DNA of 64,000 bases, from the NCBI GenBank assembly GCA_035499075.1, contig DATJZN010000056.1, positions 96,894 to 160,893 of the forward strand, written 5' to 3'. The notes beneath the pieces are model-generated. The model worked only from the letters and a program-made list of their open reading frames with translations, did not search any database and had not been told where the DNA came from. The stretch comes from Myxococcota bacterium (GTDB taxonomy: Bacteria > Myxococcota_A > UBA9160 > SZUA-336). Shown piece by piece: positions 4,811-63,597 of the stretch. The position numbers and the translations under genes were made by a program. Numbering within the stretch: position 1 is the first letter of the stretch; each line of letters starts with the position of its first letter.

Positions 4811-5782
4811 ATGAAGACGCTGGCTCTCGCCGCTCTGCTTCTGGCACTCTCGAGCGCGGCGCCCGCGGACGATCTCGCCACTCAGATCGTCGACGCGATG
4901 AACAAGATCTACGGCTCGCACCCGGGCTTCCGCGCGAATCACGCGAAGGGCATCGTCGCCGAGGGCAGCTTCGAGCCTGCGCCCGAGGCGGCGAAGTGGA
5001 CCACGTCGCCGATCTTCGCGAGCGGGAAGCTCCCGGTCACCGTGCGGTTCTCGGACGCGGGCGGGCTGCCGACCGTGCCGGACGGGTCCCCGGGCGCCAA
5101 TCCGCACGGGCTGGCGGTGAAGTTCCAGCTGCCGGGCGGCTCCGTCTCCGACATGGTCACGAACTCGCTGAAGACCTTTCCGGTCGCGACCGGCGAGGAC
5201 TTCCGCGACCTGAACCTGGCGATCGCCGCGAGCCCGCCGGGCTCGCCGAAGCCGAACGCGCTCGACACGTTCATCGCGAATCACCCCAGCGTGCCGAAGG
5301 CGCTCGGAAGCGTGGCCACACCTGCGAGCTTCGGCGACGAGGAGTATCACGGCATCGACGCGTTCATCTTCACGAACGCGGCCGGGAAGAAGCAGGCGGT
5401 CCGCTACGTATTCGCGCCCGAGAAGCTCGTGCATCTCACGCCGGAAGACGCGGCGAAGCAACCCCTCGATTTCCTCGTCGACGAGCTCCGCGCGCGCCTC
5501 GCGAAGTCGCCGGTGAAGTTCCAGCTCGAGGCGCAGCTCGCCGCGCCGGGAGACCAGACCAAGGACCCGACGCAAGCGTGGCCCGACGACCGCCCGGTCG
5601 CGCTGCTCGGCGTGCTCACGCTCACGAAGGTCGCCGCCGACAGCGCCGACGCCGAGAAGAAGCTCCTGTTCCTGCCCACGGCTGTCACCGACGGGATCGA
5701 GCCTTCGGACGATCCGCTGATCGTCCTGCGCAGCCAAGCCTACGTCCTCTCGTTCACGCGACGCGCCGCAGCGGCGCACTGA
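4811..5782 (+). CDS. catalase-related peroxidase (secreted, SrpA-like)
   Basis: Signal peptide MKTLALAALLLALSSAAPA; catalase-core-like segment RANHAKGIVAEGSFEP...VRFSDAGG; 323 aa, size typical of catalase-related mini-catalases. Confidence 0.7.
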   Translation: MKTLALAALLLALSSAAPADDLATQIVDAMNKIYGSHPGFRANHAKGIVAEGSFEPAPEAAKWTTSPIFASGKLPVTVRFSDAGGLPTVPDGSPGANPHGLAVKFQLPGGSVSDMVTNSLKTFPVATGEDFRDLNLAIAASPPGSPKPNALDTFIANHPSVPKALGSVATPASFGDEEYHGIDAFIFTNAAGKKQAVRYVFAPEKLVHLTPEDAAKQPLDFLVDELRARLAKSPVKFQLEAQLAAPGDQTKDPTQAWPDDRPVALLGVLTLTKVAADSADAEKKLLFLPTAVTDGIEPSDDPLIVLRSQAYVLSFTRRAAAAH

Positions 5783-5807
5783 CAGCGACGCGCTGCTCCG
5801 TGCGCGT

Positions 5808-6212
5808 TCACTCCCCCACGTGCACCGCGATCGACCGCTCGCTCCGCTCCCTTCGGTGCTCCCACAGATAGATCCCCTGCCAGGTCCCGAGCGCGAGCTT
5901 CCCTCCGACGATCGGAATCGACAGCGACGTCTGTGTGAGCGCGGCCTTCACGTGCGCGGGCATGTCGTCGGAGCCTTCGGTCACGTGGCGGTAGAGCGGG
6001 TCGCCTTCGGGGACGAGGCGCGCGAAGAAGGCTTCGAGGTCGCGGCGCACGTCGGGGTCGGCGTTCTCCTGGATCACGAGACTGGCCGAGGTGTGGCGCA
6101 CGAACACGGTGCACAGGCCTTCGCGCACGCCGCTCTCGCGCACGAGCGCCGCGATCTCGCGCGTCACTTCGTGGAGTCCCGGGCCGCGCGGCGCGACCGA
6201 GAGCTCGCGCAC
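5808..6212 (-). CDS. YjbQ family protein (secondary thiamine-phosphate synthase enzyme family, UPF0047)
   Basis: C-terminal 135 codons of a 1010-codon ORF; GTG start; conserved CTVFVRHTSASLVIQENADPDVRRDLEAFF and PAHVKAALTQTSLSIP blocks. Confidence 0.7.
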   Translation of the reverse strand: MRELSVAPRGPGLHEVTREIAALVRESGVREGLCTVFVRHTSASLVIQENADPDVRRDLEAFFARLVPEGDPLYRHVTEGSDDMPAHVKAALTQTSLSIPIVGGKLALGTWQGIYLWEHRRERSERSIAVHVGE

Positions 6213-6217
6213 CAACC

Positions 6218-7486
6218 CTAGTGGCCCGACGAGCCGCGGCGCAGCGCGCCGGACACGGCCGACGCCGCGCTCGTGGCGGAATCGCGCACGCGCGCGAGCA
6301 GGCGCCGCGCCCACATGAACTCGGTCGCCAGGATCGCGAGCCCTGCCCCGCCGACGACGATGCCCGGGCCCGGCAGCACCAGCATGGCGACACCGACGAG
6401 CAGCACCGTGCCGCCGACGACCAGCACGATCACGCGCCACGCCGCGCGCAGGGTGAAGCGCGCCAGCGCCTCGAGCTCGGCGGGCGCGACCGGCGAGCCG
6501 AGCCGCGCCGAGTCGCGGCGCGCGGCGACGAGCGAGGCGATGGCGCCGATCGCCAGGATGGCGAGGATCACGCCGAGCGAGGCGCCGTTCGGAATGGGCC
6601 AGCGATGGTGCACGATCATCTTCACGCCCACGAAGAGGAGCAGCAGCACCAGGCTCGCCTTCATGTACTTCATGTGCTCGATCATCGGCGCGAGCGCGAA
6701 GTACAGGCTGCGCAGGCCCAGCACCGCGAACACGTTCGAGCTGAACACCAGGAACGGGTGGCTCGTGACGGCGAAGATCGCCGGGATGGAGTCGACCGCG
6801 AACATCACGTCCGAGGTCTCGACGCACAGCAAGACCACGAAGAGCCGCGTCGCGTAGCGCTTGCCCTGCTGCAGGATGAAGAAGCGGTGGCCGGCGAAGT
6901 CGTCGTGCACGGGGTAGAGCTTGCGCGCGAGCTTGTAGATCTTGCCGTCGCCGGCCTTCGGCTCGGCCTCGCCACTCGCCATGAGCATGCGCAGAGCCGA
7001 CCAGATCAGCACGCCGCCGAACACGTACGAGACCCATTCGAAGCGCGAGAGCAGCGCGGCGCCGGCCCCGATCATGAGCCCACGGAACACCAGCGCACCC
7101 AGCACGCCCCAGTACAGGACGCGGTGCTGGTACGCGAGCGGCACGCGGAAGTAGCTGAAGATCAGCGCGATCACGACCACGTTGTCGAGCGAGAGCGAGT
7201 ACTCGACCACGTAGCCCGTCAGGTATTGCAGCACCGCGTGGCGGCCGTCGATCTGCTCGTGCGCGCGGGTGGCGATGCCGCCCCAGTCGTGCTCGAACAG
7301 CGCCCACACCACGCCGCTGAACGCGAGCGAGAGCGACACGTAGAAGAGCGTCCAGGCCAGCGCCTCGCGCGTGCCGATCACGCGCGGCGTCTTGTTGAAG
7401 ACGCCCAGGTCGATGGCGAGGAACAGGAGGATCAGGGCCAGGAACCCGATCCAGATCCCCATCCTCGCGAGCTCCGCCGAGTCCAA
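6218..7486 (-). CDS. TerC-family integral membrane protein with C-terminal PGPGW domain
   Basis: TerC core (YSLSLDNVVVIALIF, multiple TM helices); C-terminal about 70 aa with LPGPGIVVGGAGLAILATEFMWARRL (PGPGW motif). Confidence 0.8.
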   Translation of the reverse strand: MDSAELARMGIWIGFLALILLFLAIDLGVFNKTPRVIGTREALAWTLFYVSLSLAFSGVVWALFEHDWGGIATRAHEQIDGRHAVLQYLTGYVVEYSLSLDNVVVIALIFSYFRVPLAYQHRVLYWGVLGALVFRGLMIGAGAALLSRFEWVSYVFGGVLIWSALRMLMASGEAEPKAGDGKIYKLARKLYPVHDDFAGHRFFILQQGKRYATRLFVVLLCVETSDVMFAVDSIPAIFAVTSHPFLVFSSNVFAVLGLRSLYFALAPMIEHMKYMKASLVLLLLFVGVKMIVHHRWPIPNGASLGVILAILAIGAIASLVAARRDSARLGSPVAPAELEALARFTLRAAWRVIVLVVGGTVLLVGVAMLVLPGPGIVVGGAGLAILATEFMWARRLLARVRDSATSAASAVSGALRRGSSGH

Positions 7487-7513
7487 GCGAAGAACCGCTC
7501 CGCGACGCGCCGG

Positions 7514-8653
7514 CTAGCGCTCGTCGATCGGGACGTACACCTCGCCGAGGGGTCCGACGTACTTGCCGCGCGGCCGGTAGATGCGGTTGTTCTGGTACTG
7601 CTCGAGCACGTGCGCACACCAGCCCGCGATGCGGCTGGTGGCGAACACCGGGGTGAACAGGTCGATCGGGATGCCCATGCTGTAGTAGACGGACGCCGAG
7701 TAGAAATCGACGTTGCAGATGAGCCCCTTCTTCTGCGCCATGAGCTCCTCGAGGCGCGCGCTCATCTCGTACAGCTCGGGGTGGCCGTTCTCCTTGGTGA
7801 TCTCGGCGCTCATCCGCTTCAGGATCTTCGCGCGCGGATCGCCCTCCTTGTACACGCGGTGCCCGAAGCCCATCACCTTCTCGCCCGACTTCAAGTGATT
7901 CTCGAGCCAGGCCTCGAGCCGGTCGGGCGACTTGACCTCGAGCAGCATGCGCGCGACCTGCTCGTTGGCGCCGCCGTGCAGCGGGCCCTTCAACGTGCCG
8001 ATCGCGGCCATCACGCTCGAATAGAGCCCCGACAACGTGCTCGACGTGACGCGCGCCGAGAACGCCGACGCGTTCAGCTCGTGGTCGGCGTGCAGGATCA
8101 GGCACGTGTCGAAGCGGCGCACCGTGCGCTCGTCCGGCTCCTCGCCCTTCAGCATGTACAGGAAGTTCCAGGCGATCGACTTCTCGGGCAGCGGCTGCAG
8201 CGGCCACTGGCCGCTGCGCACGCGCTGGTAGGCCGCCACGATCGTGCCCACGCGCGCGGAGAGGCGCGTCGACTTGCGCAGCGTCGCCGCCGCGTTCACC
8301 AGGTTCGCGTCGGGATCGTGCAGGGTGAGGCCCGCGATCACCGCGTGCAGGAAGTCCATCGGGTGCACGCGCGTCGGCAGGCCGTGGAACCAGCCGAACG
8401 ACTCGGGCGGCAGCGCCATCGAGTGGTGCAGATCGGTCGAGAATTCGTCCAGCTCGCGGCGCGTCGGCAGCCAGCCGTACCAGAGCAGATAGACGAGCTC
8501 TTCGAACGTCGCGTTCGCGGCGAGGTCTTCGATCGTGTAGCCGCGCAACAGCAGCGTCGAGCCCTGGATCGAGCTGATCGACGTCGTACACGTGACGACG
8601 CCCTCGAGGCCGCGGTCGATCGCGCCATCGTATTCCGGTGCCTGGTCGTTCAC
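7514..8653 (-). CDS. citrate synthase (type I, about 380 aa; 2-methylcitrate synthase not excluded)
   Basis: Citrate synthase family blocks GYTIEDL, LILHADHELNAS, GPLHGGANE, MGFGHRVYK, NVDFYSA; GTG start with GGGGAG RBS; start overlaps upstream stop (GTGA). Confidence 0.85.
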   Translation of the reverse strand: MNDQAPEYDGAIDRGLEGVVTCTTSISSIQGSTLLLRGYTIEDLAANATFEELVYLLWYGWLPTRRELDEFSTDLHHSMALPPESFGWFHGLPTRVHPMDFLHAVIAGLTLHDPDANLVNAAATLRKSTRLSARVGTIVAAYQRVRSGQWPLQPLPEKSIAWNFLYMLKGEEPDERTVRRFDTCLILHADHELNASAFSARVTSSTLSGLYSSVMAAIGTLKGPLHGGANEQVARMLLEVKSPDRLEAWLENHLKSGEKVMGFGHRVYKEGDPRAKILKRMSAEITKENGHPELYEMSARLEELMAQKKGLICNVDFYSASVYYSMGIPIDLFTPVFATSRIAGWCAHVLEQYQNNRIYRPRGKYVGPLGEVYVPIDER

Positions 8654-9225
8654 GGTCGACTCCCCTGCCCTTGCTCCACTCGCCCCCGTCCGACATGAGA
8701 CCGCACATCGCGTGTCCCCGCCAGCTTGGCGTCGATGCGACGCTGCAGGTAGGGCGAGAAGTGACCCCGATAGCGCTCCCAGAGCTCGGGCCGGCTCCAG
8801 TCGTCGCCCGACACCGCACGGCGACACGTCGGCGCGCCACAGCCGCACGGAAACTGGTCGTAGGGCGTGCCGTCGCTCATGGCGTAGTCGAACGTGATCT
8901 CGTCGCCCGGCTCGATGCGGCGCAGCGCGACCAGCGCGATCTGCCCCGACAGCCCGCAGTTCGGGTCGCACGAGTGGTTCACCCAGTCGGCGGCGCCGTC
9001 GCGGCTCGATACCAGGTACAGGTCCTCTTCGACCTGCAGGGTCAGGAGCCGCTGCGCGGCCGAGAGCGAGTCGAGCGCCGCGGCCGGCACGACCTCGCCG
9101 CCGAACACCACGACGACCTCGCCCGCCGAGATGGCTTCGCGCGCGACCAGCGTCCGCCCGCCCTTCGCTTCGATGCGGCGTCCCTCGAGCTTGGGCGAGT
9201 GGTAGGACGTCGATTTCGGGAGCAC
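8650..9225 (-). CDS. SET-domain protein (putative protein-lysine N-methyltransferase)
   Basis: SET motifs NHSCDPNC, EITFDY, post-SET cysteine cluster CGCGAPTC; 191 aa. Confidence 0.75.
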   Translation of the reverse strand: MLPKSTSYHSPKLEGRRIEAKGGRTLVAREAISAGEVVVVFGGEVVPAAALDSLSAAQRLLTLQVEEDLYLVSSRDGAADWVNHSCDPNCGLSGQIALVALRRIEPGDEITFDYAMSDGTPYDQFPCGCGAPTCRRAVSGDDWSRPELWERYRGHFSPYLQRRIDAKLAGTRDVRSHVGRGRVEQGQGSRP

Positions 9226-9281
9226 GGCGGGATCGTAGGAGACCGCCGACCGGCTGCGCCAGTCGTGCGAGAATCCTGCGC

Positions 9282-10040
9282 ATGTCGAACGCAGAAGCGT
9301 CGCTGCGCGAGGTGGCCGGCTGGCTGCGCGAGGCGCGCCGGATCGCCGTGCTGACGGGCGCCGGGATCTCCACCGAGTCGGGCATCCCGGACTTCCGCGG
9401 CCCGAACGGGGTGTGGACCAAGAACCCGGGCGCCGAGAAGCTGGCCACCCTGTCGCACTACGTCGCCGACAAGGGCGTGCGCGAGCGCGCCTGGCGCCAC
9501 CGCCTGGAGTCGCCGGCGTGGAAGGCCGAGCCGAACGCCGGCCACCGGGCGCTCGCGAAGCTGGAGCAGACCGGTCGGCTCCTGTGCCTGATCACGCAGA
9601 ACGTCGACGGCCTGCACCTGGCCGCGGGCACCTCGCCCGCGCGGCTGGTCGAGATCCACGGCTCCATGCGCGAAGTCGTGTGCCTCGACTGCGGCGAGCG
9701 CGCGCCCATGGAGCGCGCGCTCGCGCGCGTGTCGGCCGGCGAGAGCGACCCGCCCTGCCGCTCGTGCGGGGGGATCCTGAAATCGGCCACGATCTCGTTC
9801 GGGCAGAATCTGGTCGCGCACGAGCTCCAGCGCGCCGAGCGCGCCGCGAACGAGTGCGACCTGATGCTCGCCGTGGGAACCACCTTGTCCGTGTACCCGA
9901 TCGCCGCGGTCGTGCCGATCGCGAAGCGCGGCGGCGCGCGCGTGGTGATCGTGAACGGCGAGCCGACCGAGATGGACGACCTCGCCGACGCGGTGATCCG
10001 CGGACCCATCGGCGAGATCCTGCCGCGCCTCTGCGAGTGA
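9282..10040 (+). CDS. cobB: NAD-dependent protein deacylase, Sir2 family
   Basis: GAGISTESGIPDFRG, QNVDGLH, zinc ribbon CLDCG...CRSCGG; 252 aa. Confidence 0.85.
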   Translation: MSNAEASLREVAGWLREARRIAVLTGAGISTESGIPDFRGPNGVWTKNPGAEKLATLSHYVADKGVRERAWRHRLESPAWKAEPNAGHRALAKLEQTGRLLCLITQNVDGLHLAAGTSPARLVEIHGSMREVVCLDCGERAPMERALARVSAGESDPPCRSCGGILKSATISFGQNLVAHELQRAERAANECDLMLAVGTTLSVYPIAAVVPIAKRGGARVVIVNGEPTEMDDLADAVIRGPIGEILPRLCE

Positions 10041-11116
10041 GCCGGATCGCGCTCGAGGTGAGCTCCGCCGCGGGGCGGCCGCCGTTCGGCGGCGTCGGCG
10101 GCACGATCCGCGGGCTGGTGTCGGCGCTGCTCGCGGAAGACCCGAGGACGGACTACGCGCTGTGCACGCGGTTCTCGCGCTGGCGCAAGGGCGAGCTGTT
10201 CCGGCCGCGCGCGCCCAACGCGCACGTGCGGGTTCTCGTCGATCCGCTGAACGCGCTCCTCATCCCCGGCACGGCGCTGTTCCACGCAATGGGCGTGTAC
10301 GTGCCGAAGACGCCGCGCGTGCCGAAGCTGGTCACCATCCACGACCTGAACGCGGTGCGGAACGCCGCGTGGGTGAGCGAGCACTGGCGCGAGCGCCGCG
10401 GCGGGCGGATCGCGGACGCCGTCGCGCGTGCCGACCACGTGGTCACGTACAGCGCCTTCACCGCGGGCGAGGTGTGCGAGGAGTACGGGCTCGCGCCGCC
10501 GCGCGTGCATCCGGTGCATCTCGGTGTCGACACCGAGCGGTTCCACCCGTCGCCGCCCGAGGCGATCGCGAAGCTGCGGGAACGGCACGGCGACTACGTG
10601 ATCGCGATCGGGCTGCTCACGCCGCGCAAGAACTTCCCGGCGCTGGTGGCGGCGCTCGGGCAGCTGCCGGAGCTGCGGCTCGTGCTGGTCGGCCGCGGCA
10701 CGGACGGCGAGCGCGAGGTCGAGGCGGCGCTCGATCGGCACGGCGTACGCGCGCGCACCACGCGGCTCACCGGGATTCCCGAGGCGGAGCTCGTGGCGCT
10801 GCTCGGCGCGGCGCGCGCGTGCGCGGTGCCGAGCCTGTACGAGGGCTTCGGGCTCACCGTGCTGGAGGCGATGGCGTGCGGCACGCCGGTCGTGTGCTCG
10901 AACGCGGCGTCGCTGCCGGAAGCCGCGGGCGACGCGGCGCTGCTCGTCGATGCGCGCGAGCCGGACGCGCTGGCCGAAGCGCTGCGCCGCGCGACGGGCG
11001 ACTCCGCGCTTCGCGCCGAGCTGGTGGCGCGAGGGCTCGCGCGCGCGAGAGAGATGTCGTGGACCGCCTCGGCGCGGCGACTCCGCTCGGTGTACCGCGC
11101 CGTCGCGGGCGTCTAG
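10037..11116 (+). CDS. glycosyltransferase family 4 (GT-B fold)
   Basis: GTG start overlapping cobB stop (GTGA); C-terminal GT1/GT4 motif VPSLYEGFGLTVLEAMACGTPVVCS. Confidence 0.8.
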   Translation: MSRIALEVSSAAGRPPFGGVGGTIRGLVSALLAEDPRTDYALCTRFSRWRKGELFRPRAPNAHVRVLVDPLNALLIPGTALFHAMGVYVPKTPRVPKLVTIHDLNAVRNAAWVSEHWRERRGGRIADAVARADHVVTYSAFTAGEVCEEYGLAPPRVHPVHLGVDTERFHPSPPEAIAKLRERHGDYVIAIGLLTPRKNFPALVAALGQLPELRLVLVGRGTDGEREVEAALDRHGVRARTTRLTGIPEAELVALLGAARACAVPSLYEGFGLTVLEAMACGTPVVCSNAASLPEAAGDAALLVDAREPDALAEALRRATGDSALRAELVARGLARAREMSWTASARRLRSVYRAVAGV

Positions 11117-29275: not shown

Positions 29276-29754
29276 GCGCGCCCGAGCGCCGGCCGCAGCT
29301 CTACGGCATCGGCACGTCGGTCTACGCGGAGCGCGCAGGCGAGATCCTGGTCTTGAAACGCGCGGGCGGCGCCGCGCTGGGCGCCTGGTATACACCAGGC
29401 GGTGTACTCGACCCGGGCGAGACGCCGGCCGAGTGCGCGCGCCGCGAGCTCTTCGAGGAGACTGGCCTCGCGCCGAGCGGGCCGCTGCGCCTGGTGAGCC
29501 TGGTGCCCATGCACGTCTACGGCGCCGACGGCTTCATCGCCGCCTTCGCGTGCGCTTGCGACGCCGGCGAGGTCCAGCTCAGCCCGGAGCACTCGGCGGC
29601 GCGGTGGATCGACCCGCGCGAGTACCGCGACCGCTACTTCGCGCCGGAGGGCCTCGCGAAGCTGCGCGCCGCCGAGCCGCGCATCGCCGAGATGGCCGCG
29701 GCCGTGCGGCGCTCGCTCGACGAGTATCTCGACTGGAAGGCCGGGCGCGCCTAG
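29272..29754 (+). CDS. NUDIX hydrolase
   Basis: Nudix box GGVLDPGETPAECARRELFEETGL; GTG start overlapping upstream stop (GTGA). Confidence 0.8.
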   Translation: MSAPERRPQLYGIGTSVYAERAGEILVLKRAGGAALGAWYTPGGVLDPGETPAECARRELFEETGLAPSGPLRLVSLVPMHVYGADGFIAAFACACDAGEVQLSPEHSAARWIDPREYRDRYFAPEGLAKLRAAEPRIAEMAAAVRRSLDEYLDWKAGRA

Positions 29755-32700
29755 GAGGCCGGCCGCAGCTCGGCGAGGCGCGCCACCGCGCGCTCGCCGT
29801 CGTCGAGCTCGAAGAACTCGATGCGCTCGACCCGCCCGGCGTCGGTGGTCATCAGCACCAGGTGGGTCCCCTCGAACTCGCCGCCGTGCGCGAGCGTGCC
29901 GGAGACCTGCACCACGCTCACGACTCCGTACGGCTCGAGCGCCAGGCGGAACGGCGTGTCCACCTGCACCGCGGACGCCAGCTCGGCCAGCACCCGGACG
30001 CTGTCTGCGTAGGCCGGTCCCGCCAGCGCGCCGAGCCGCACCACCCGGCGATGGTCCTCGAGCACGAAGCCGTCCGCGAGGATCGCGCGCGCCCGCGCGC
30101 CGTCGCGCGCGTTGAAGGCGTCGTTCAGCTCGATGCCGGGCCGGAGCACCGCCGCGGCGAGCGGGTCGCGCGCGCACAGACCGTCGCGCAGCTCGCGCAG
30201 CGCGCGCGACCGCTCGGCGGGCGCGAACTCGCGGAGGACCGCGATGCGGCCCGCCGCGTCGAGCTCGACGAGCCAGAGTGACTCGCCCCCGGAACCTCGC
30301 ACGAGCTCGAGTGCGGACTGCGCGTCGGCGGAGCCGACGATCGCACGAGTGACTCGTGCGCCGGTGGCCGCGCAGCGGCCGAGCGCAGCGAGCGCACGCT
30401 CGATTTCGGCGCCGCCGGCGCAGAGTGCCCGCGCGCCGGCTCCGTCGCCCGAGCCGAGCGCGGCGAAGAGCCGGTCCAGCGCAGCCGTCGCGGAGTTCGG
30501 CGCGGCGAACGGCGCGAGCCGCTCGGGTGCGCGAGCGAACGCGCCGAAGCACTCGCGGGCGCGCTCGAGCTGGTCGAGCTCGAACAGGTCGATCGACACG
30601 AGCCGCGCGCCGTCGTGGCGAGTCGCGCGCACGAACACGCGCTCGAACGCCCCGCCGTCGCGCAGCCGCCCGAAGCTGCGCGTGACGGCCAGCTCGCCCC
30701 GCTCGTCGGCGGCCAGCTCGTACAGCGACTCGGCCGCGGCGTCGGGCGACTCGGCGAACAGCGCCGCGAGCGCCGCCACGTAGGCTGCGGCGCCCTCGAG
30801 CCGGCCGAGACCCGTGCGGCGGTGGTCGTCGAAGACGAAGTCGCCGCGCAGCGCGCCGCGCACGCGCTCGAGGTCGCGCGCGTTGAAGATGCGGCGGAAC
30901 TCGCGCATCGGCGATGGATCGGCGCGCTCGAGCAGCTCCGCGCTCGCGGCGCGCCGGTCGTCCGGATCGAAGTGCAGCACGGCGCGCAGCCGGCCCTGCG
31001 CATCGAGCTCGACGAGGCGCAGGAACTCGCCCTCGAACGCGCCTGCGCCCGCGCCGCCGCGGTAGCGGAAGCGCTCGAGCGCGAGGCGCTGGCCGCTCGT
31101 CGCGAGCAGCTCGCGGCCCCGGGCGATCTCGCCCAGCGACGCCATGAACGACAGGTTGCGCACGTACACCTCGACGTCGCCGCGCACGAGCGCGCCCTTG
31201 CGCCGATCGTCGAACTCGAAGTCGGGAGTCACGAGCGCGCGCAGCGCGTCCCAGTCGCCCGCCACCACGAGCGGGCCCAGTCGCTCCTGGTCGGCGCGCG
31301 CCGCGGCGTTCGGCGGCACGCGCAGCGGGTCCGACCGGAGCTCGGCGAAGCGCGCGCGCGCCTCGTCGAGCTGGTCGAGCTCGTACGCGTCCCAGCGGCG
31401 GATCCGGCCGTCCGCTGCCAGCGCGAACAGGTTCGCACCTGCGATCTCGAAGCGACCGCCGGCGCGCGTGCCCTCCCAGCGGCCGACGTTCAAGATGCCG
31501 CGCCCGTCCAGCGCGAGCACGTGGTCGGCGCGCGACCGCGCATCCGGCGCCAGCTCGAAGAGCGCGCGCAGCCGCGCGAGATACTCGTCGCGAGAGTGCA
31601 GCGTGCCGAAGCCCATGCGCCGGTGGTCCTCGAACACGAGGTCGTGCGAGAAGACCGACGCGAGCCCGTCCCAGTCGCGCGCCGACATCGCGCGCTCGAG
31701 CCGGCGCAGCGCCTCGCGCGCCGCCGGAAACGGCGCGGCCTCGCCCGCTTCGTAGCGGCGCTCGAGCTCGGCGTACACCTCCTCCAGGGCGTCGGGATCG
31801 AAGCGAACCAACGCGATCCGGTCGCCGCGCTCGTCGACCTCGACCAGGGCGAGCTGTTCCGTCTCGCTCGGGCCGATGGTCTCGCTGCGGCCGCTGTAGA
31901 CGAGCCGCGCCACGCACAACCGCTCCCCGCGGGTGGCGAGCACGTGGCTCTCGAGGTGTGCGACGATCGCGTCGTACAGCTCGCGCATGTAGGCCAGATG
32001 CTCCTCGCGGCTCAGGTCCAGCTGCATGAGGCGGCGGCGGTCGAGACTGCGGAAGCCGGGGGCGTACAGCGCGACGCACGCGTCCCAGTCGCGGTCGTTC
32101 CACGCCGAGCCGAAGCGGTCGAGCGAGCGCGTCGCGGCGTTCTCGATCCGTGGACCGGGCGCGGCCGCGAGCGACGCAGCTCCGTGGGCGGCGAAACGCG
32201 CCTCGAGCGCGGCATGCGCGGCATCGCGCGCTTCCAGGTCGAACACGTCGAGCGCGATGCGCCGCCCCTCGCCGTCGACCTCGACCAGGTCCAGCATCTC
32301 GACGGCCAGCGGCCCGGCGCCGGCTTCCGCGCGCGCTCCGAACCGGACCCGCAGCAGCGCCAGGTGTTCGCCGCGCGCCGCGACGAGCGCGCTCGACCAT
32401 TCGCTGTCCGAGGTCTCGAACAAGAGCCGCTCGTTCGCAAAGAAGGCGTCGCCGCGCACCTGCACGCGGAACAGCGCACGGTGGTCGTTCATGACGTGAC
32501 TCGGCGCGTAGCTCGCGACCACCGCGTCCCAGTCGCGTGCGCGCCAGGCGCGCTCCGAGCGAGTCACCGCGCGCGCCGCCGCGTTCGCGCGCTCCGAGGC
32601 CGGCGCGGGCTCGGCGCGCGAGTCCACCGTTTCGGCAGCGCGAAAGACCGCGAGCGCCGGCCGCGCGCGCGTCGCGCGTTCGGCGAGCAGGCTCGCGCCC

Positions 32701-35700
32701 TTCGCCTCCCACAGCTCGATCGCGCGCGCGTCCTCGGCGTCGGCCTCGGCGCTGCGGCCGGCTGCGCGCAGCGCGACGGCGAGCGCGCGCCGCGCGTTCG
32801 CGTGCTGGAGCAGCGCATCGGTGGCGGCGGCGATCTCGACGGCTGCGCGCGCGAGCTCGATCGCGGCCGCGTGCTCGCCGCGCCGCGCGAGCGCCTCGGC
32901 GCGCACGCCGCGCCAGGCGATCGCGGCGTTGAGGTCGTCGCCGGCGAGCCGCTCGCTCTCCTGGCTCAGCACCTCGGCGCCGATCGCGTCGCCCTGCGCG
33001 AGGCGCGCGCGCGCCAGCAGCGCGGCCGCCCGCGCCGCGTCGATGCCGAGCCCGTGCTCGCGCAGCCCCTCGTACGCGACCGAGAGACAGCGCGCCGCGG
33101 CCTCGGCGTCGCCCTGCAGGAGCTCGATGTAGCCCGCGAAGAACTCGACTTCGAGGAGCTGCGCCTCGAGCCCGAGCTCCTCGACGGTGCGCCGCGCGGC
33201 CGCGATCATGCGCCGCGCCGCCTCGACGCGCCCGCGCAGCGCTTCGAGCACCGCCTGACACCGAAGTGCGACGGCCTCGACCGCGGGCGCCCCCTGCGTG
33301 ATTCGCAGCACGCGCACGACGTCGAGACAGCGGCCGCTCGCGCGCGCGACCGGACTCGGGCCGTACAGCGCGGCGACCGGGGCCCCGGCCAGGACGCCGT
33401 TCGCACGGCGGCGGTCGCGCGCGCGCCGCGCCGCCGCGAGCGCGCGGTCGAGCGCCGCTTCGGATGCGCCGAGCCGGCCCAGGCGCGCCAGCGCGGTGGC
33501 GTGAACGGAGTGCGCCTTGGCCTCGCCCGCGGCATCGCCCGCCGCCGCGAGCGCCGCTGCGGCCGCCGCCGCCGACTCCGCGGAGGCGCGCAGCGACTCG
33601 GGGTGGGTGAGCACGGCGAGCTCCGCCGCGAAGCACGCGTGCCACGCGCACAGGCGCTCCGAGCGCGGCGCGAAACGCGCGAGCTCCTCCACCGCCCGGC
33701 TCGCGAGCCCGACTTCGCCCGCGGCGAGCAGCGCCTCGCACCAATCGAGCGCGAGGTCGGCGCGCGCCGGGTCGGCGGCGTCGAGACACTCGAGCGCGCG
33801 CCCGACGAGGTCGGCCGCGAGCCGCAGCTCGTCGCGAGCCAGCGCCATGCGCCCTGCCGCGCCCAGGTGGCGCGCCGCGCGCCCGCCGACCGCTGCGCCG
33901 TGGGCGTCGAGCGGTCCGAGCTCGCGCAGATGCCGGTGTGCCTGCTCCAGGTGCCAGCCGATCGGCTCCTCGTGCTCGGGTGCCCCATCCGCCTGCGCGG
34001 CGATCCAGTCCGCCAGCCGCTCGTGCAGCTCTGCGCGCGTGCGGCGCAGCACGCGGCGGTAGGCGGCGTCGCGGATCAGCGCGTGGTGGAAGCGCAGGCC
34101 GGGCTCGCCGAGAAACCAGCCGCTGTCCGGCTCGATCAGCTCGGTGCGGCGCAGCGACTCGAGCTTGGCGTCGAGCTCGGCGGGATCGCGCTGCAGCAGG
34201 TGTGCGACCGCGGCGCGCGAGAACCTGCGCCCGACGACCGCCGCGCGCTCGAGGAGCGCGCGCTCGTCGGGGCCCAGGCGCTCGATGCGCGCCGCGAGCA
34301 GTGCGTGGATGGTCGGCGGCATCTCGAGCCGCGCGAGCTCGACGCCGGCGACCCAGCGGTCGCCGTCGCGCCGCAGCGCTCCGTCGTGGACGAGCATGCG
34401 CACGAGCTCGCCCACGAAGAGGGGGTTGCCCTCGCTCGCCGCGAGCACGCGCCCGACCAGCGCGGCGGGCAGCTCCTCGGCGCCGACCGCGTTGGCGGCG
34501 AGCCGCGCGGCCGCGCTCGCCTCCAGCCCGGAGAGCATCACCACCTCGGTCACTACACCGCCTGGTGTCGCCAGCGACGAGCGCAGCTCGCGGAGCTCGG
34601 GGCGCGAGCCGAGCAGGACGAGGAGAGGCACGCCGCTCGACCACTCCACCAGGTGCTCGGCCAGGTCGAGGAGCAGAGGCTCGGCCCACTGCACGTCGTC
34701 GATGACCAGCACGACGGGCCGCGCCGCGGCCAGCGCCGCGAGCAGCCGCCGCACCACGAAGAACGTCTCCTCGGGCGAGGCGGGCGCGCCGGCCAGCAGC
34801 GCGGCGAGCCCGGTCGCCAGCCGCGCGCGCTCCGACTCCGCGCCGGGCACGACCGCGTCGACCGCCGCGCGGATCGCCTCGGGCTCGTCCGCGTCGCCGA
34901 GTCCGAGCCGCTCGCGCAGCACCGCGGCGATGGGCGCGAAGCTGCGGCCACGCGACGGATCGCAGCGCGCCGACAGCACGACCGCGCGGTCGCCCACGCG
35001 CCGCGCGAGCTCGGCCAGCAGGCGCGACTTGCCGAGCCCGGGCGAGCCGAGCAGCACGGCCAGGCGCGCACCGGGCGCGGCGACCGCGGCTTCGAACACG
35101 GCGCGCAGCCGGCGCAGCTCGTCTTCGCGCCCCACGAATGCCGTGCCCTGCCCGACGGCGGGCGGGTCCAGCGAGACCACGCGATAGGCCGCCACCGGCT
35201 CCACGCGGCCGCGCAGCGCGAACGTGCCGAGCGGCTCGAGCGTCAGCTTGCCCGCGACCAGCCGCTGCGTGGCCTCGCCGAGCACCACGTCGCCGTCGCG
35301 CGCCTCCTGCTGCAGGCGCGCCGCGACGTTCGCCGGGTCGCCGATCACGCTGGTCTGATCCTCGGCGACGATCACCTCGCCCGTGTTCACCGCGATGCGC
35401 AGGCCCGCCGCACCGACCGCGGCCGCCTGCTCGCCCAGCAGCTCGCGGAACGCGGCCTGCATGGCGACCGCCGCGCGCACGCCGCGCACGGCGTCGTCTT
35501 CAGCGACGCGCGGCACGCCGAACGCGCACAGCACGCCGTCCCCGAGCAGCTGCACGACGGTGCCGCCGTGCGCGCGCACCACGGCCGCCATCGCGTCGTG
35601 GTACCGCGCCATGAAGCGGCGCGCGCTCTCGGCGTCGAGCCGCTCGTGCAACGCGACCGAGCCGACCAGATCGGCGAAGACGATGGTGACCACCTTCCGC

Positions 35701-35882
35701 GCCGTGGTCTCGACCGGCGCCGACGCCGTCGCGGCGAGCGCCGCTCCGCACGCGTCGCAGAACCTCGCGTCGGCGGCGTTCTCTGCGCCGCAGCTGGGAC
35801 AGCGCGGCGCGAGCGACTGGCCGCAGCCGCTGCAGAAGCGCGCCCCGGCGCGGTTGGCCCGGCCGCAGCTCGCGCAAGTCAT
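29751..35882 (-). CDS. multidomain signalling protein: double zinc ribbon + class III adenylate/guanylate cyclase + STAND/AAA NTPase + TPR-like region + seven tandem NTF2/SnoaL-like domains
   Basis: Residues 3-45: four CxxC pairs. Cyclase catalytic motifs KVVTIVFADLVGS and LLGDGVLCAFG. Walker A LLGSPGLGKSRLL, Walker B VLVIDDVQWAE. Ala-rich helical TPR-like stretch about residues 600-1060. Seven about-130-aa repeats each opening with a ...RDWDA..A..Y/F...D..F.DHRR... motif. Single uninterrupted 2043-codon frame. Confidence 0.8.
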   Translation of the reverse strand: MTCASCGRANRAGARFCSGCGQSLAPRCPSCGAENAADARFCDACGAALAATASAPVETTARKVVTIVFADLVGSVALHERLDAESARRFMARYHDAMAAVVRAHGGTVVQLLGDGVLCAFGVPRVAEDDAVRGVRAAVAMQAAFRELLGEQAAAVGAAGLRIAVNTGEVIVAEDQTSVIGDPANVAARLQQEARDGDVVLGEATQRLVAGKLTLEPLGTFALRGRVEPVAAYRVVSLDPPAVGQGTAFVGREDELRRLRAVFEAAVAAPGARLAVLLGSPGLGKSRLLAELARRVGDRAVVLSARCDPSRGRSFAPIAAVLRERLGLGDADEPEAIRAAVDAVVPGAESERARLATGLAALLAGAPASPEETFFVVRRLLAALAAARPVVLVIDDVQWAEPLLLDLAEHLVEWSSGVPLLVLLGSRPELRELRSSLATPGGVVTEVVMLSGLEASAAARLAANAVGAEELPAALVGRVLAASEGNPLFVGELVRMLVHDGALRRDGDRWVAGVELARLEMPPTIHALLAARIERLGPDERALLERAAVVGRRFSRAAVAHLLQRDPAELDAKLESLRRTELIEPDSGWFLGEPGLRFHHALIRDAAYRRVLRRTRAELHERLADWIAAQADGAPEHEEPIGWHLEQAHRHLRELGPLDAHGAAVGGRAARHLGAAGRMALARDELRLAADLVGRALECLDAADPARADLALDWCEALLAAGEVGLASRAVEELARFAPRSERLCAWHACFAAELAVLTHPESLRASAESAAAAAAALAAAGDAAGEAKAHSVHATALARLGRLGASEAALDRALAAARRARDRRRANGVLAGAPVAALYGPSPVARASGRCLDVVRVLRITQGAPAVEAVALRCQAVLEALRGRVEAARRMIAAARRTVEELGLEAQLLEVEFFAGYIELLQGDAEAAARCLSVAYEGLREHGLGIDAARAAALLARARLAQGDAIGAEVLSQESERLAGDDLNAAIAWRGVRAEALARRGEHAAAIELARAAVEIAAATDALLQHANARRALAVALRAAGRSAEADAEDARAIELWEAKGASLLAERATRARPALAVFRAAETVDSRAEPAPASERANAAARAVTRSERAWRARDWDAVVASYAPSHVMNDHRALFRVQVRGDAFFANERLLFETSDSEWSSALVAARGEHLALLRVRFGARAEAGAGPLAVEMLDLVEVDGEGRRIALDVFDLEARDAAHAALEARFAAHGAASLAAAPGPRIENAATRSLDRFGSAWNDRDWDACVALYAPGFRSLDRRRLMQLDLSREEHLAYMRELYDAIVAHLESHVLATRGERLCVARLVYSGRSETIGPSETEQLALVEVDERGDRIALVRFDPDALEEVYAELERRYEAGEAAPFPAAREALRRLERAMSARDWDGLASVFSHDLVFEDHRRMGFGTLHSRDEYLARLRALFELAPDARSRADHVLALDGRGILNVGRWEGTRAGGRFEIAGANLFALAADGRIRRWDAYELDQLDEARARFAELRSDPLRVPPNAAARADQERLGPLVVAGDWDALRALVTPDFEFDDRRKGALVRGDVEVYVRNLSFMASLGEIARGRELLATSGQRLALERFRYRGGAGAGAFEGEFLRLVELDAQGRLRAVLHFDPDDRRAASAELLERADPSPMREFRRIFNARDLERVRGALRGDFVFDDHRRTGLGRLEGAAAYVAALAALFAESPDAAAESLYELAADERGELAVTRSFGRLRDGGAFERVFVRATRHDGARLVSIDLFELDQLERARECFGAFARAPERLAPFAAPNSATAALDRLFAALGSGDGAGARALCAGGAEIERALAALGRCAATGARVTRAIVGSADAQSALELVRGSGGESLWLVELDAAGRIAVLREFAPAERSRALRELRDGLCARDPLAAAVLRPGIELNDAFNARDGARARAILADGFVLEDHRRVVRLGALAGPAYADSVRVLAELASAVQVDTPFRLALEPYGVVSVVQVSGTLAHGGEFEGTHLVLMTTDAGRVERIEFFELDDGERAVARLAELRPAS
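29754..32590 (-). repeat. intragenic tandem array of seven diverged about-390-bp units encoding NTF2/SnoaL-like domains (C-terminal half of the 2043-codon gene)
   Basis: Protein-level periodicity: RARDWDAVVASYAPSHV / DRDWDACVALYAPGF / ARDWDGLASVFSHDLVFEDHRR / AGDWDALRALVTPDFEFDDRR / ARDLERVRGALRGDFVFDDHRR / degenerate unit 6 / ARDGARARAILADGFVLEDHRR, each ending in a ...VELDxxGRI...FDxD strand motif. Confidence 0.6.
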
Positions 35883-35950: not shown

Positions 35951-37678
35951 CTACGCGGCCGCCCCGTGTCGCAGCAGCTTGCCCGGCGTCGCGCCGGTGC
36001 ACTTGCCGTCTTCGAAGGTGAGCTCGCCGTTCACGAGCGTCCAGCGGTAGCCCTCGGCGCGCTGGATGCGGCGCCACTCGCCCGCCGGGAAGTCGTGCGC
36101 GATCTCGGAGTCCCACCAGTCGGGCACGCGGCGCAGCTTGGCGAGCTCGTAGACGACCACGTCCGCGGGCCAACCCTCGAGCAGCGCCCCGCGGTCGCGG
36201 AAGCCGGCGGCGCGCGCGGGCAGGTAGGACAGCTTGTAGTGCGCTTCCTCCAGCGTCATGCGCTTCTCGTCGCGCACCAGCCAAGCCAGCGTGTCGGTGG
36301 TGTACGAGCCCGAGGTCAGGAACTTGGTGTGCGCACCGCCGTCGGAGACGCCCGGGATGACGTAAGGAGAGGCGAGCAGCTCGCCCACGAACTCGGAGTT
36401 GTCGCTGGTCGCGCTCTTGGTGAGGAAGCCCGCGGTGAGGTCGCTCGCGAGCGAGAGCCGCACGGCGGCCTCGACTGGATGCACCCCGAGCTCCGCGGCG
36501 ACCTCGCCCACCGTCCGGCCGATCCAGCGGTCGAGCTCGGGCGCGTTCTTCGCGCCCTCGAACACGTGCCCCGCGATCGGGCCGCCGAGGATCGGCGTCT
36601 GCAACATGCCCGCGTCGGCTTCGGCGGCCATCGCGCGCACGAGCTCCGGATCGGCGAGCTTCGCGAGCTTCTCCTGGTGCGTGCCGGTGAGCGCCCGGTT
36701 CCAGGCCGGGCTCGAGTCGAACAGGTTCCAGTCCTCGAAGGTGAAGCGGAACGGCGCGCGGATCGAGTTCGCCTGGCCGAACATGGGAATGCCCCGCGCG
36801 TGGCAGCTCTCGAGCCACCGGACGAACATGCGGTGCACCCAGGGCAGCTCGTTCACGGCGAGCACCACGTTGAACAAGACCGGACGCCCCGCCGCGACCG
36901 CCACGTCCTCGCACAGCTTCAAGTCTTTCTCGAGCTCGCCCGTCGCGTTGGTGAGCTGGATGAAGCCCTCGCCGCGCCGCCCGAGCGCGCGCGCGAAGGC
37001 GAGCAGATCGCCCTCGCTCATGGTGTCGGTGACCATCGGCGTGCCGTCGAAGTCGGCCTGGATCGAGTGCGCGCCCGTCCGCTGCGCCGACCAGCCCAGC
37101 GCACCGGCGCTCATCGACTCGTCGAGCAGCGCGAGCATCCGCGCCATCTCGGCCTCGGTCGCGGGCCGGCGCTTCGCGTTCTCGAGGCCCATCGCGTAGG
37201 TCATGAGCGGCGCGAGCGGCAGGTAGGAGAGGCAGTTCACTCCCTTCGGGATGCGCTCGAGCGTCGACAGCCACTCGGGGAAGCTCTCCCAGTCCCAGAG
37301 CATGCCGGCGCGCATCGACGCCAGCGGGATGGCCTCGAGCCGCGACATGGAGAGCATCGCGCGCTCGCGCTCGGCCGGGCGCACCGGCGCGAAGCCGAAG
37401 CCGCAGTTGCCCAGCGCGACCGAGGTCACGCCGTGCCAGCCGGAGATCGTGCACCACGGGTCCCACTGGATCTGCGCGTCGTAGTGCGTGTGCAGGTCGA
37501 CGAAGCCGGGTGCGACGACCAGGCCGTCGGCGTCGAGCACGCGCGCGGCGTTCGACTTCGCGATCCGCCCGATCCGGGCGATGCGGCCGCCGCGAATGCC
37601 GACGTCGGCACGGAACGCGGGGAAGCGCGTGCCGTCGACGACGGTCCCCCCGGAGATGACGAGGTCGAACTCCGCCAC
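35951..37678 (-). CDS. N-acyl-D-amino-acid deacylase family amidohydrolase (D-aminoacylase)
   Basis: MAEFDLVISGGTVVDGT, GFVDLHTHYD metal-binding motif; size 575 aa typical of D-aminoacylases. Confidence 0.85.
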   Translation of the reverse strand: MAEFDLVISGGTVVDGTRFPAFRADVGIRGGRIARIGRIAKSNAARVLDADGLVVAPGFVDLHTHYDAQIQWDPWCTISGWHGVTSVALGNCGFGFAPVRPAERERAMLSMSRLEAIPLASMRAGMLWDWESFPEWLSTLERIPKGVNCLSYLPLAPLMTYAMGLENAKRRPATEAEMARMLALLDESMSAGALGWSAQRTGAHSIQADFDGTPMVTDTMSEGDLLAFARALGRRGEGFIQLTNATGELEKDLKLCEDVAVAAGRPVLFNVVLAVNELPWVHRMFVRWLESCHARGIPMFGQANSIRAPFRFTFEDWNLFDSSPAWNRALTGTHQEKLAKLADPELVRAMAAEADAGMLQTPILGGPIAGHVFEGAKNAPELDRWIGRTVGEVAAELGVHPVEAAVRLSLASDLTAGFLTKSATSDNSEFVGELLASPYVIPGVSDGGAHTKFLTSGSYTTDTLAWLVRDEKRMTLEEAHYKLSYLPARAAGFRDRGALLEGWPADVVVYELAKLRRVPDWWDSEIAHDFPAGEWRRIQRAEGYRWTLVNGELTFEDGKCTGATPGKLLRHGAAA

Positions 37679-40652: not shown

Positions 40653-41810
40653 GTGTCGGCGTTCCTGACGGCGCTCGCGCTGGCCGCCTGGCTGTACCTG
40701 GTGTTCGCCCGCGGACGCTTCTGGACGGCCGAGGTGCGCCTGGACGGGCGCGCGCGCGAGCCGGCGCGCTGGCCGGACGTGGTGGCGGTCGTCCCGGCGC
40801 GCGACGAGGCCGCGCTCCTGCCGCGCACCCTGCCCGCGCTGCTGGGCCAGGAGTACGCGGGCCAGCTGCGCATCGTCCTGGTCGACGACGAGAGCGCGGA
40901 CGGGACCGCCGACGCCGCGCGCGCGGCGGCGCGGGCGCACCCGAACGGCGCACGGCTCGAGGTGGTGCGCACGTCCGCGCGGCCGGGCGGCTGGGTCGGC
41001 AAGATGTGGGCGGTCGAGACCGGCGTATCCACGGCGCAGGCGGCAGATGCGCCGACCTGGTGGTGGCTCACCGACGCCGACGTGCTGCACGCGCCCGACA
41101 CGCTGGCGCGGCTCGTGGCGAAGGGCGAGAGCGAGCGCCTCGACCTGGTCTCGCTCATGGTGAAGCTCGACCGCGGCATGGGCTGGAACGCGCTGCTCGT
41201 GCCCGCGTTCGTGTACTTCTTCCAGCAGCTCTACCCGTTCCCGCTGGTGAACGACCCGGGCTCGCGCGTGGCGGCCGCGGCGGGCGGCTGCGTGCTGGTG
41301 CGCGCCGACGCGCTCGCGCGCGCGGGCGGGATCCCGGCGCTGCGCGGCGAGGTGATCGACGACTGCGCGCTGGGCCGCGCGGTGAAGGCCCAGGGCGCGA
41401 TCTGGCTCGGCCTCGCGGACCGCGAGGAGTCCGTGCGTCCCTACGACAGCGTCGACGACGTGTGGAACATGGTGGCGCGCAGCGCCTACACACAACTGCG
41501 TCACTCGCCGCTCTTGCTGGCGGGCACGCTCGCCGGACTCGCCCTGCTCTACGCGGTGCCGCCGCTCGGCGCGCTGGCGTGGGGGTTCGGCGGCGGCGAC
41601 GCCACGGGCGTGTTCGGCGCGTCGGCGTGGCTGCTGCAGGCGGCGTCGTTCGTGCCGACGCTCGCGCTGTACAAGCGCTCGCCCTGGCTGGCGCTCGCGC
41701 TGCCCGCTGCGGGCGCGTTCTACGCGGCCATGACCTTCGACTCCGCCCAGCGGCACTGGCGCGACCAGGGCGCCACGTGGAAGGGCCGCACGGGCGCGGG
41801 CGCCGACTAG
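40653..41810 (+). CDS. membrane-anchored glycosyltransferase family 2 (HpnB-like)
   Basis: GTG start; N-terminal TM, GT2 motifs VVAVVPARDEA, VLVDDESADGT, and C-terminal multi-TM tail as in HpnB-type GTs. Confidence 0.7.
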   Translation: MSAFLTALALAAWLYLVFARGRFWTAEVRLDGRAREPARWPDVVAVVPARDEAALLPRTLPALLGQEYAGQLRIVLVDDESADGTADAARAAARAHPNGARLEVVRTSARPGGWVGKMWAVETGVSTAQAADAPTWWWLTDADVLHAPDTLARLVAKGESERLDLVSLMVKLDRGMGWNALLVPAFVYFFQQLYPFPLVNDPGSRVAAAAGGCVLVRADALARAGGIPALRGEVIDDCALGRAVKAQGAIWLGLADREESVRPYDSVDDVWNMVARSAYTQLRHSPLLLAGTLAGLALLYAVPPLGALAWGFGGGDATGVFGASAWLLQAASFVPTLALYKRSPWLALALPAAGAFYAAMTFDSAQRHWRDQGATWKGRTGAGAD

Positions 41811-53193: not shown

Positions 53194-53245
53194 GCCGGAC
53201 GTGGTAGAACACGGCGCTCCCGAAGGGAAGCAAGAGGAGATCGCC

Positions 53246-63494: not shown

Positions 63495-63597
63495 GCGAAA
63501 CGATGGTAGCGCGAACCGGTTGCTCGTTCGGAGACACCGGAGGTAAAACGACCTCCGCTCGCGTTCACGGAGAAGCTGGCGGATGAAGGAGTCCCAG

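Follow-up and report, generated by a model that had tools for sequence, protein, structure and literature searches.

To our knowledge, hardly any endogenous substrate of a bacterial SET protein is known, and published work deals mainly with secreted histone effectors and with BurB. The latter, the methionine S-methyltransferase of Burkholderia thailandensis (PDB 9l4t/9l4v), is a SET enzyme that methylates free methionine. The effectors, among them LegAS4/RomA of Legionella and NUE of Chlamydia, are larger, secreted SET proteins aimed at host histones (PMC3980110, PMC2904774). Methylation of citrate synthase has been described for CS-KMT (METTL12), which modifies Lys-395 (precursor numbering) and lowers the activity of the enzyme, in a reaction that is blocked by oxaloacetate; CS-KMT is restricted to vertebrates, and no bacterial homologues have been reported (PMC9006661). 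Here we analyse a SET/post-SET methyltransferase gene that stands directly before a citrate synthase gene and is divergent from a sirtuin gene. It lies in a stretch of 64,000 nucleotides (nt), called the window below, from an uncultured Myxococcota bacterium (assembly GCA_035499075.1, contig DATJZN010000056.1, positions 96,894 to 160,893 of the forward strand; 72% G+C). Independent gene calls on an identical public metagenome contig (ENA k141_5514270, 173 kb) give the same gene boundaries.

The SET protein belongs to a large bacterial family, strongly conserved and uncharacterised, whose members are stand-alone SET/post-SET proteins of ~190 amino acids (aa). Its link to citrate synthase is a lineage-restricted operon layout, within which citrate synthase is a possible but improbable substrate. 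The reading that we favour, and hold to be somewhat better than evenly probable, is that the window gene encodes an active methyltransferase of this widespread family, probably directed at protein lysine, with a substrate that is shared by many phyla, and that the gene heads a citrate synthase operon in one Myxococcota lineage. The gene and its diagnostic motifs are located as follows:

8650..9225, minus strand: SET/post-SET methyltransferase gene, 191 aa, GTG start, TGA stop

8956..8979, minus strand: NHSCDPNC motif in the translation, residues 83-90; N83, H84, C86 and P88 invariant in 64 homologues

8884..8901, minus strand: EITFDY motif in the translation, residues 109-114; Y114 invariant, F112 aligned to MLL1 Y3942

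8824..8847, minus strand: post-SET CGCGAPTC (C127, C129, C134), with C86 the presumed zinc site; aligned to MLL1 CNCGAKKC

The initial annotation described a 191-aa reading frame with all SET hallmarks (NHSCDPNC, EITFDY and a post-SET Cys cluster). All of these are found in the translation, and the protein matches Pfam SET (PF00856) over model positions 1-104 of 105 (E 6.4e-14; 52.7 bits vs a cut-off of 22.4). It has the SET fold as well as the catalytic and cofactor motifs (NHS/C, and ELxF/YDY with the catalytic Tyr). The AlphaFold model (pLDDT 90.7) is confident to approximately residue 170 and places two helices in the post-SET extension. This extension is specific to the family and strongly conserved (GDDWxRPELWxRYxGxFSPYLQRRI), and is followed by a basic, poorly conserved and disordered tail. 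The four Cys residues of the predicted zinc site (C86, C127, C129 and C134) are all invariant in the 64 homologues and all align to Cys residues of MLL1. Because every catalytic and presumed zinc-binding residue is intact, the protein is most likely an active S-adenosylmethionine (SAM)-dependent methyltransferase.

The closest solved sequences are the SET domain of MLL1/KMT2A (E 4.9e-20), followed by ASH1L, MLL2-4, yeast Set1 and NSD2, so that the nearest relatives are the MLL/SET1-type lysine methyltransferases; the likeness in fold to BurB is almost equal. Phe112 aligns to a position (Tyr3942 of MLL1) that we take to be the Phe/Tyr switch. Phe at this switch favours higher methylation states, and its presence here suggests di- or tri-methylation. 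The third-position G+C of the SET gene is lower than that of the citrate synthase gene in the window and in all six relatives compared (0.82-0.90 vs 0.90-0.96). It is also lower than that of the sirtuin gene (0.93-0.96), except in L007, where the sirtuin itself has a value of 0.84. The low values may reflect weaker codon selection and low expression, or else foreign origin.

That the SET reading frame is no chance product is clear from its 1452 homologues (database proteins matching at E <= 1e-5) and from 26 invariant columns in 64 of them (51-81% identity), which include N83, H84, C86, Y114, C127, C129 and C134; many acidic residues are also invariant in this alignment. At E <= 1e-3 the protein matches 16011 cluster representatives, and 586 loci of the family were found in species-level genomes. 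Members are ~170-200 aa in length, are 51-63% identical to the window protein across phyla, and occur in Myxococcota, Krumholzibacteriia, Latescibacterota, Anaerolineae/Chloroflexota, Hyphomicrobium, Methyloceanibacter, Phycisphaeraceae, Acidobacteriota and others. Among the cultured carriers are Hyphomicrobium sp. GJ21 (L035), Methyloceanibacter marginalis R-67177 (L075) and Nannocystaceae ST9 (L044). The family is without a curated model, no NCBIfam model matching the protein, and a literature search returned no paper that characterises it and none that links a bacterial SET protein to citrate synthase. Because these proteins are small, strongly conserved and found in free-living environmental bacteria, an endogenous substrate is what the family features point to.

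Fusions were sought by checking ten proteins of fusion size from the best 150 representatives of the family. Those seen in the family join SET to a class I methyltransferase, to an MFS protein, to a Kdo transferase, or to a second SET domain in tandem, and none of the ten is a SET-citrate synthase fusion. Two tandem SET stretches occur in many representatives of 350-375 aa, and 6-8 in a few giant proteins (P0267, P0308, P0368). In one 4.3-Mb assembly (L094), a second, smaller SET gene (5629-6024, 131 aa) is convergent to the family member.

For gene neighbourhoods, we compared the best 80 of the 586 SET genome loci, plus further metagenome contigs. The features of the junction with citrate synthase, and of the genes that follow on the same strand of the window, are:

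8650..8653, minus strand: GTGA, in which the stop of SET overlaps the start of citrate synthase, read from the sequence; kept in 7 of 8 related genome loci and in the metagenome contigs L083-L085

8660..8665, minus strand: GGGGAG, putative Shine-Dalgarno sequence for citrate synthase, within the SET coding tail and 6 nt before the GTG

7514..8653, minus strand: short (dimer-type) citrate synthase, 379 aa; full-length match to Pfam Citrate_synt (E 4e-129, residues 15-362), and TIGR01800

6218..7462, minus strand: TerC/Alx membrane protein with a fused PGPGW domain; lies 51 nt beyond the stop of citrate synthase and is probably on the same transcript

5808..6212, minus strand: YjbQ-family gene (Pfam, gene calls), separated from TerC by 5 nt and probably closing the operon

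The overlap of the SET TGA with the citrate synthase GTG, already pointed out in the initial annotation, is present in the sequence, and a purine-rich stretch (GGGAGA/GGGGAG type) precedes the citrate synthase start in 8 related loci. A scan found no promoter-like site between the two genes. Terminator-like sites on the minus strand are absent across both the SET-citrate synthase junction and the gap between citrate synthase and TerC (the scan ended before the TerC-YjbQ junction); the nearest such sites are on the plus strand, inside TerC (7365-7387). With genes on one strand, an overlap, a putative internal ribosome-binding site and neither promoter nor terminator in between, SET and citrate synthase have the predicted properties of a translationally coupled operon, and their co-expression in this lineage is well supported. 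Since the following gaps are 51 and 5 nt, and since the scanned part has no minus-strand terminator-like site, the operon probably comprises SET, citrate synthase, TerC and YjbQ, which is a mixed gene set.

The overlap has little meaning by itself, because 4-nt overlaps are common in this region of the genome: of 15 pairs of neighbours on the same strand within the 20 kb around the gene, six have one, three of these being ABC-transporter pairs and one the sirtuin with its glycosyltransferase neighbour (GT4). Translational coupling had been put forward as a functional hint; the overlap and the ribosome-binding site on which it was based are there, but their value as a hint is reduced by this frequency. 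With regard to TerC, the NCBIfam label of its family is ‘R_switched’; no Rfam family was detected in the window or in three relatives, and so no riboswitch before TerC. The PGPGW domain, which is a C-terminal fusion to the TerC/Alx protein in the window, is encoded by a separate gene in the sister sub-clade.

The best solved relatives of the citrate synthase are enzymes of 371-378 aa (6abx, 1aj8 and 1iom), whereas the E. coli-type enzymes of 426-427 aa align to it from approximately their residue 42, and it is without the ~50-residue N-terminal extension of the hexameric type II enzymes. Because its best solved relatives are short, the earlier label of type-I citrate synthase is right in the sense used in the literature. 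The label is less secure with respect to NCBIfam, in that the sole model passed is TIGR01800 (478.7 bits vs a cut-off of 421.3), a mixed ‘2-methylcitrate synthase/citrate synthase II’ subfamily, with all equivalog models below their cut-offs; for this reason the enzyme may also be a 2-methylcitrate synthase. No prp genes occur near citrate synthase in the surrounding 20 kb. The catalytic motifs are GPLHGGA at 223, GHRVY at 264, and NVDFYS with Asp316. Lys309 is located 7 residues before the catalytic Asp316 and is universal in 117 relatives, and the SET-linked citrate synthases have extra, clade-specific lysines (K158, K169, K241 and K276). We rejected these as a sign of a target site, since their presence is not evidence of methylation.

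On the other side of SET, the divergent region has the following features:

9282..10040, plus strand: Sir2/CobB-type NAD-dependent deacylase, 252 aa; Pfam SIR2 (E 1.8e-44) and motifs

10037..11116, plus strand: GT4 glycosyltransferase, 359 aa, GTG start; the start overlaps the sirtuin stop by 4 nt (10037-10040)

9226..9281, no strand: divergent spacer, 56 nt; two blocks conserved across the lineage (alignment of 10 loci)

9232..9237, minus strand: TACGAT, resembling a -10 hexamer, 6 nt ahead of the SET GTG; T, A, G, A and T invariant

9269..9274, plus strand: GAGAAT, resembling a -10 hexamer, 7 nt ahead of the sirtuin ATG

The divergent gene had been identified as a Sir2-family deacylase, and this identity is borne out by the Pfam match and by a complete set of sirtuin motifs (GAGIS26, QNVDGLH106, HG126, CLDC134 and CRSC159), with an NF001753 score slightly under the cut-off (240.8 vs 243 bits). 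Its coupling to the GT4 gene has no evident functional link to lysine deacylation, and the pair is kept in relatives (e.g., L083). The spacer between SET and sirtuin, given initially as 57 nt, is 56 nt in length, and its SET-side block reads TA(C/G)GAT across the lineage. Because conserved -10-like hexamers stand 6-7 nt before both start codons, they suggest back-to-back -10 elements of leaderless transcripts. A scan with the sigma-70 consensus gave nothing in 7300-9500, and the hexamers were recognised from the alignment only.

SET is followed directly by citrate synthase in 8 of the 80 genome loci (L001-L008), all of which are metagenome-assembled genomes of Myxococcota from one lineage, with identities to the window of 69-82% for SET and 89-93% for citrate synthase. 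The sirtuin is divergent before SET wherever the contig reaches that far (L008 ends before it), and three further metagenome contigs (L083-L085; SET 68-73% identical) have the same layout. The 4-nt overlap is kept in 11 of these 12 loci (the window, eight genome loci and three contigs), the other being L005 with a 19-nt gap. Two sub-clades of the lineage differ downstream of the block, with either TerC or an Na+/H+ exchanger, which indicates rearrangement around an intact block.

Beyond this lineage the arrangement disappears. In the 72 other genome loci there is no citrate synthase within 6 kb of SET, even at E < 1, and a SET homologue with 62% identity sits behind a class I methyltransferase and not with citrate synthase. 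From the side of citrate synthase, the series of identities falls from 88% straight to 79%, and three relatives at 74-79% identity have neither SET nor sirtuin nearby. SET and citrate synthase thus show neither the recurrence in distant genomes nor the fusion that would mark a conserved functional pair. Conservation of the gene pair in relatives, on which the initial annotation had proposed to check its idea, was found within one Myxococcota lineage and is lacking elsewhere. An all-against-all clustering of open reading frames (4.5 kb around SET, 80 loci) revealed no neighbour common to all SET lineages; the largest non-SET neighbour clusters comprise 13-16 loci each and are lineage-specific. 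One apparent cross-phylum cluster (number 14) is an artefact of antisense reading frames that overlap SET. The layout of SET, citrate synthase and sirtuin is a gene order peculiar to one lineage and does not amount to a conserved functional pair.

The most regular association of SET in other lineages is with a class I methyltransferase, which ends directly at the SET start in 14 Chloroflexota-type loci (L016, L018, L020, L021, L023, L026, L037, L039, L045, L047, L060, L066, L071 and L079); further class I methyltransferase-SET loci are L081, L095 and L096. The partner is 220-265 aa in length (Methyltransf_25/11), is fused to SET in the representatives P0252 and P0258, and has a weak, sub-threshold likeness to glycine/sarcosine N-methyltransferase, UbiE/UbiG and BioC. 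It is the strongest partner signal for the SET family, and it is absent from the window. An MFS/TLC-like transporter gene comes after SET in several lineages, and often in Chloroflexota-type loci (e.g., L081, 5580-6086; L095, 7299-8606; L096, 5546-6886), and P0270 is a SET-MFS fusion, which hints at small-molecule metabolism.

The remaining contexts are of a different kind. In Hyphomicrobium (13 loci) the gene order is IMPDH-MAPEG-RsmB-SET. Methyloceanibacter-type loci (16; e.g., L038, 2078-6585, and L075, 624-6141) have chorismate synthase, a sirtuin in about half of the cases, and then two genes, RlmD and TlyA, that precede SET on the strand opposite to it (RlmD and TlyA minus, SET plus). 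This sirtuin is intact in about 5 of the 16 loci and degraded or absent elsewhere. We considered a recurring sirtuin-SET link and rejected it, because a second co-occurrence among ~15 contexts is compatible with chance (~5%, by our own estimate). The gene order in Krumholzibacteriia is a GcvT-like gene, two amine-oxidase/CrtI-like genes, SET and DeoC. From these contexts come three hints that compete with one another (a small-molecule pathway, a target in translation or the nucleoid, and an uninformative setting), and none of them is towards citrate synthase.

In the reading that we favour, the SET protein would N-methylate a lysine of a protein that is common to many bacterial phyla, this being the most probable chemistry. 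In this lineage only, its gene would head an operon that runs from SET through citrate synthase and TerC to YjbQ, with a short conserved divergent promoter region common to this operon and to the sirtuin-glycosyltransferase pair. Citrate synthase would owe its ribosome-binding site and start codon to the tail of the SET gene, and its transcription to the SET promoter. Because that tail appears to hold both signals, the two proteins would be made from one mRNA. The gene order may be held because citrate synthase depends on the SET promoter, and the adjacency would be historical in origin.

Several observations weigh against this. The block and the exact 4-nt overlap persist despite the divergence of SET to 68% and the rearranged genes downstream, and the sirtuin is also retained beside the pair; such persistence could be due to selection for a functional link and not to inertia. 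Elsewhere, SET has a class I methyltransferase as its coupled or fused partner and stands beside MFS-type transporters, and this context fits small-molecule metabolism at least as well as it fits protein methylation. In addition, a second, unrelated sirtuin subfamily (NF001755 type) is located 2-3 kb upstream of SET in some of the Methyloceanibacter-type genomes.

If the persistence of the block has a functional basis, SET might, as the initial annotation suggested, methylate a lysine of the co-translated citrate synthase and the sirtuin deacylate the same enzyme, which would make the locus a bacterial, SET-based counterpart of CS-KMT/METTL12. A methylated lysine near the active site could, for example, tune activity or shield the enzyme from non-enzymatic acylation by acetyl-CoA. 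Modifying enzymes are encoded beside their substrates in acuABC-acsA of Bacillus and in SirTM with GcvH-L. The operon retains its overlap in 11 of the 12 lineage loci at 68-82% SET identity and with rearranged flanks, the divergent sirtuin has also been retained, together with a conserved spacer between it and SET, and the enzyme offers both Lys309 near Asp316 and the four clade-specific lysines (K158, K169, K241 and K276). We nevertheless judge citrate synthase to be quite an unlikely target. It is missing from within 6 kb of SET in the 72 other genome loci and from the further contexts examined, the three relatives at 74-79% identity do without SET and Sir2, and the ten fusion-sized representatives contain no fusion of the two. 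The SET identity of 51-63% across phyla argues for one common substrate, whereas the linkage occurs in one lineage only; the operon also holds TerC and YjbQ, and overlaps of 4 nt are common (Sir2-GT4 included). Lys309, being universal, holds nothing specific to the lineage and does not discriminate between the explanations. The most specific form of this idea, in which SET would trimethylate a lysine (candidate Lys309) of citrate synthase made from the same mRNA while the sirtuin clears acyl groups, a bacterial methyl/acyl switch at the entry to the tricarboxylic acid (TCA) cycle, we regard as a long shot; if true, such a switch arose independently of vertebrate CS-KMT and on a different fold.

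The class I methyltransferase that ends at the SET start in the 14 Chloroflexota-type loci, its fusion to SET in P0252 and P0258, its weak and sub-threshold resemblance to small-molecule methyltransferases, and the MFS/TLC-type transporters after SET (L081, L095 and L096, with the fusion in P0270) would all be accommodated if SET were a BurB-like small-molecule methyltransferase. It would then N- or S-methylate a free amino acid or amine (e.g., in a betaine-type or sulfonium route), and its placement by metabolic genes would reflect metabolism, not protein modification. The sequence is, however, nearer to the MLL/SET1-type protein lysine methyltransferases than to BurB (E 4.9e-20 vs 3.5e-12), and the canonical four-Cys post-SET cluster of the former is kept. 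There are no BurI/BurD/BurE-like partners within 10 kb, and some of the fusions may be artefacts of gene calling in metagenomes; we consider a small-molecule substrate unlikely. A protein of the translation apparatus or a nucleoid-associated protein is a decidedly unlikely target in our estimate, one for which sirtuin and SET would form an acyl/methyl switch with citrate synthase as a bystander. Yeast SET proteins Rkm1-4 act on ribosomal proteins, and the Chlamydia SET protein acts on Hc1. Genes for rRNA methyltransferases flank SET in two alphaproteobacterial lineages (TlyA/RlmD in the Methyloceanibacter type, 15-16 loci; RsmB in Hyphomicrobium, 13 loci), the basic, poorly ordered C-terminal tail is kept across phyla, the many invariant acidic residues of SET suggest a basic substrate, and sirtuins occur near SET in two unrelated lineages. 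Against this, these rRNA methyltransferase genes belong to conserved housekeeping regions, in most cases on the opposite strand or ~300 nt away, and may be there incidentally; about half of the Methyloceanibacter-type loci lack the sirtuin or have it in degraded form, with the co-occurrence explicable by chance as estimated above, and no gene for a ribosomal or nucleoid protein stands beside SET in any context examined.

If citrate synthase did prove to be the target, its methylation here would be the first in bacteria to parallel that of the mammalian enzyme, and would add a new level of TCA-cycle control. More probably, the locus is one of several lineage-specific contexts that can guide the search for the substrate of the SET family: citrate synthase and a sirtuin in this lineage, a class I methyltransferase and a transporter in Chloroflexota-type loci, and rRNA methyltransferases in Alphaproteobacteria. 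The family is large and conserved enough that identifying its substrate would be worthwhile.

Elsewhere in the window, on the minus strand, a 2043-aa protein (29751-35882) combines a double zinc ribbon, an adenylate/guanylate cyclase, an AAA_16 ATPase and SnoaL-like domains. A 644-aa protein (51769-53703, minus strand) matches both domains of the lipase maturation factor LMF1, of a family that is known mainly from eukaryotes, and a full-length LigD (60993-63767, minus strand), with phosphoesterase, ATP-dependent ligase and primase-polymerase parts, indicates non-homologous end joining. The 323-aa protein at 4811-5782 (plus strand) has a signal-peptide-like N-terminus and matches only part of the catalase domain (E 3.7e-24), and may be no catalase proper but a related haem protein. 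Two ARAGORN calls, a tRNA-Trp (36668-36744, plus strand) and a 90-nt tRNA-Asn (41579-41668, plus strand), are probably false: neither is an Rfam tRNA at the gathering score, and they fall inside long reading frames with high third-position G+C (35951-37678, minus strand, and 40653-41810, plus strand).

Compared with the secreted effectors, the window family is small, strongly conserved and found in free-living environmental bacteria, and its member in the window is 13% identical to LegAS4. BurB is a remote paralogue (25-29% identity; profile E 3.5e-12 over residues 62-144), and because it acts on a small molecule, the SET fold alone does not fix the class of substrate. Neither orthology to BurB nor its pathway was found for the window gene, with no bur/dimethylsulfoniopropionate pathway genes (BurI/BurD/BurE-like) within 10 kb. 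The four-Cys zinc cluster is kept in the window family.

With CobB-type sirtuins, the window sirtuin shares the Sir2 domain, the NAD-binding motifs, the catalytic His and two CxxC zinc motifs, and it differs from them in scoring just under the NCBIfam cut-off and in being coupled to a GT4 glycosyltransferase. CS-KMT/METTL12 has a seven-beta-strand fold and the window protein a SET fold, so that the latter is not a member of the same family and could be a functional analogue at most. The likeness is in hypothesised function only, although a lysine 7 residues before the catalytic Asp does exist in the window citrate synthase; the offset between Lys309 and Asp316 is presumably the same as that between the trimethylated Lys368 and Asp375 of the mammalian enzyme.

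MLL/SET1 (KMT2) and ASH1L/NSD enzymes have partner-binding or chromatin-reading domains, whereas the window protein is a stand-alone bacterial protein of 191 aa that has none of these, has its own post-SET extension and a basic, disordered tail, and is encoded by a host without histones. What the window protein has in common with these enzymes is the core itself, in which NHSC, ELxF/YDY and the CxCx4C cluster are all retained, the last aligned residue for residue to CNCGAKKC of MLL1.

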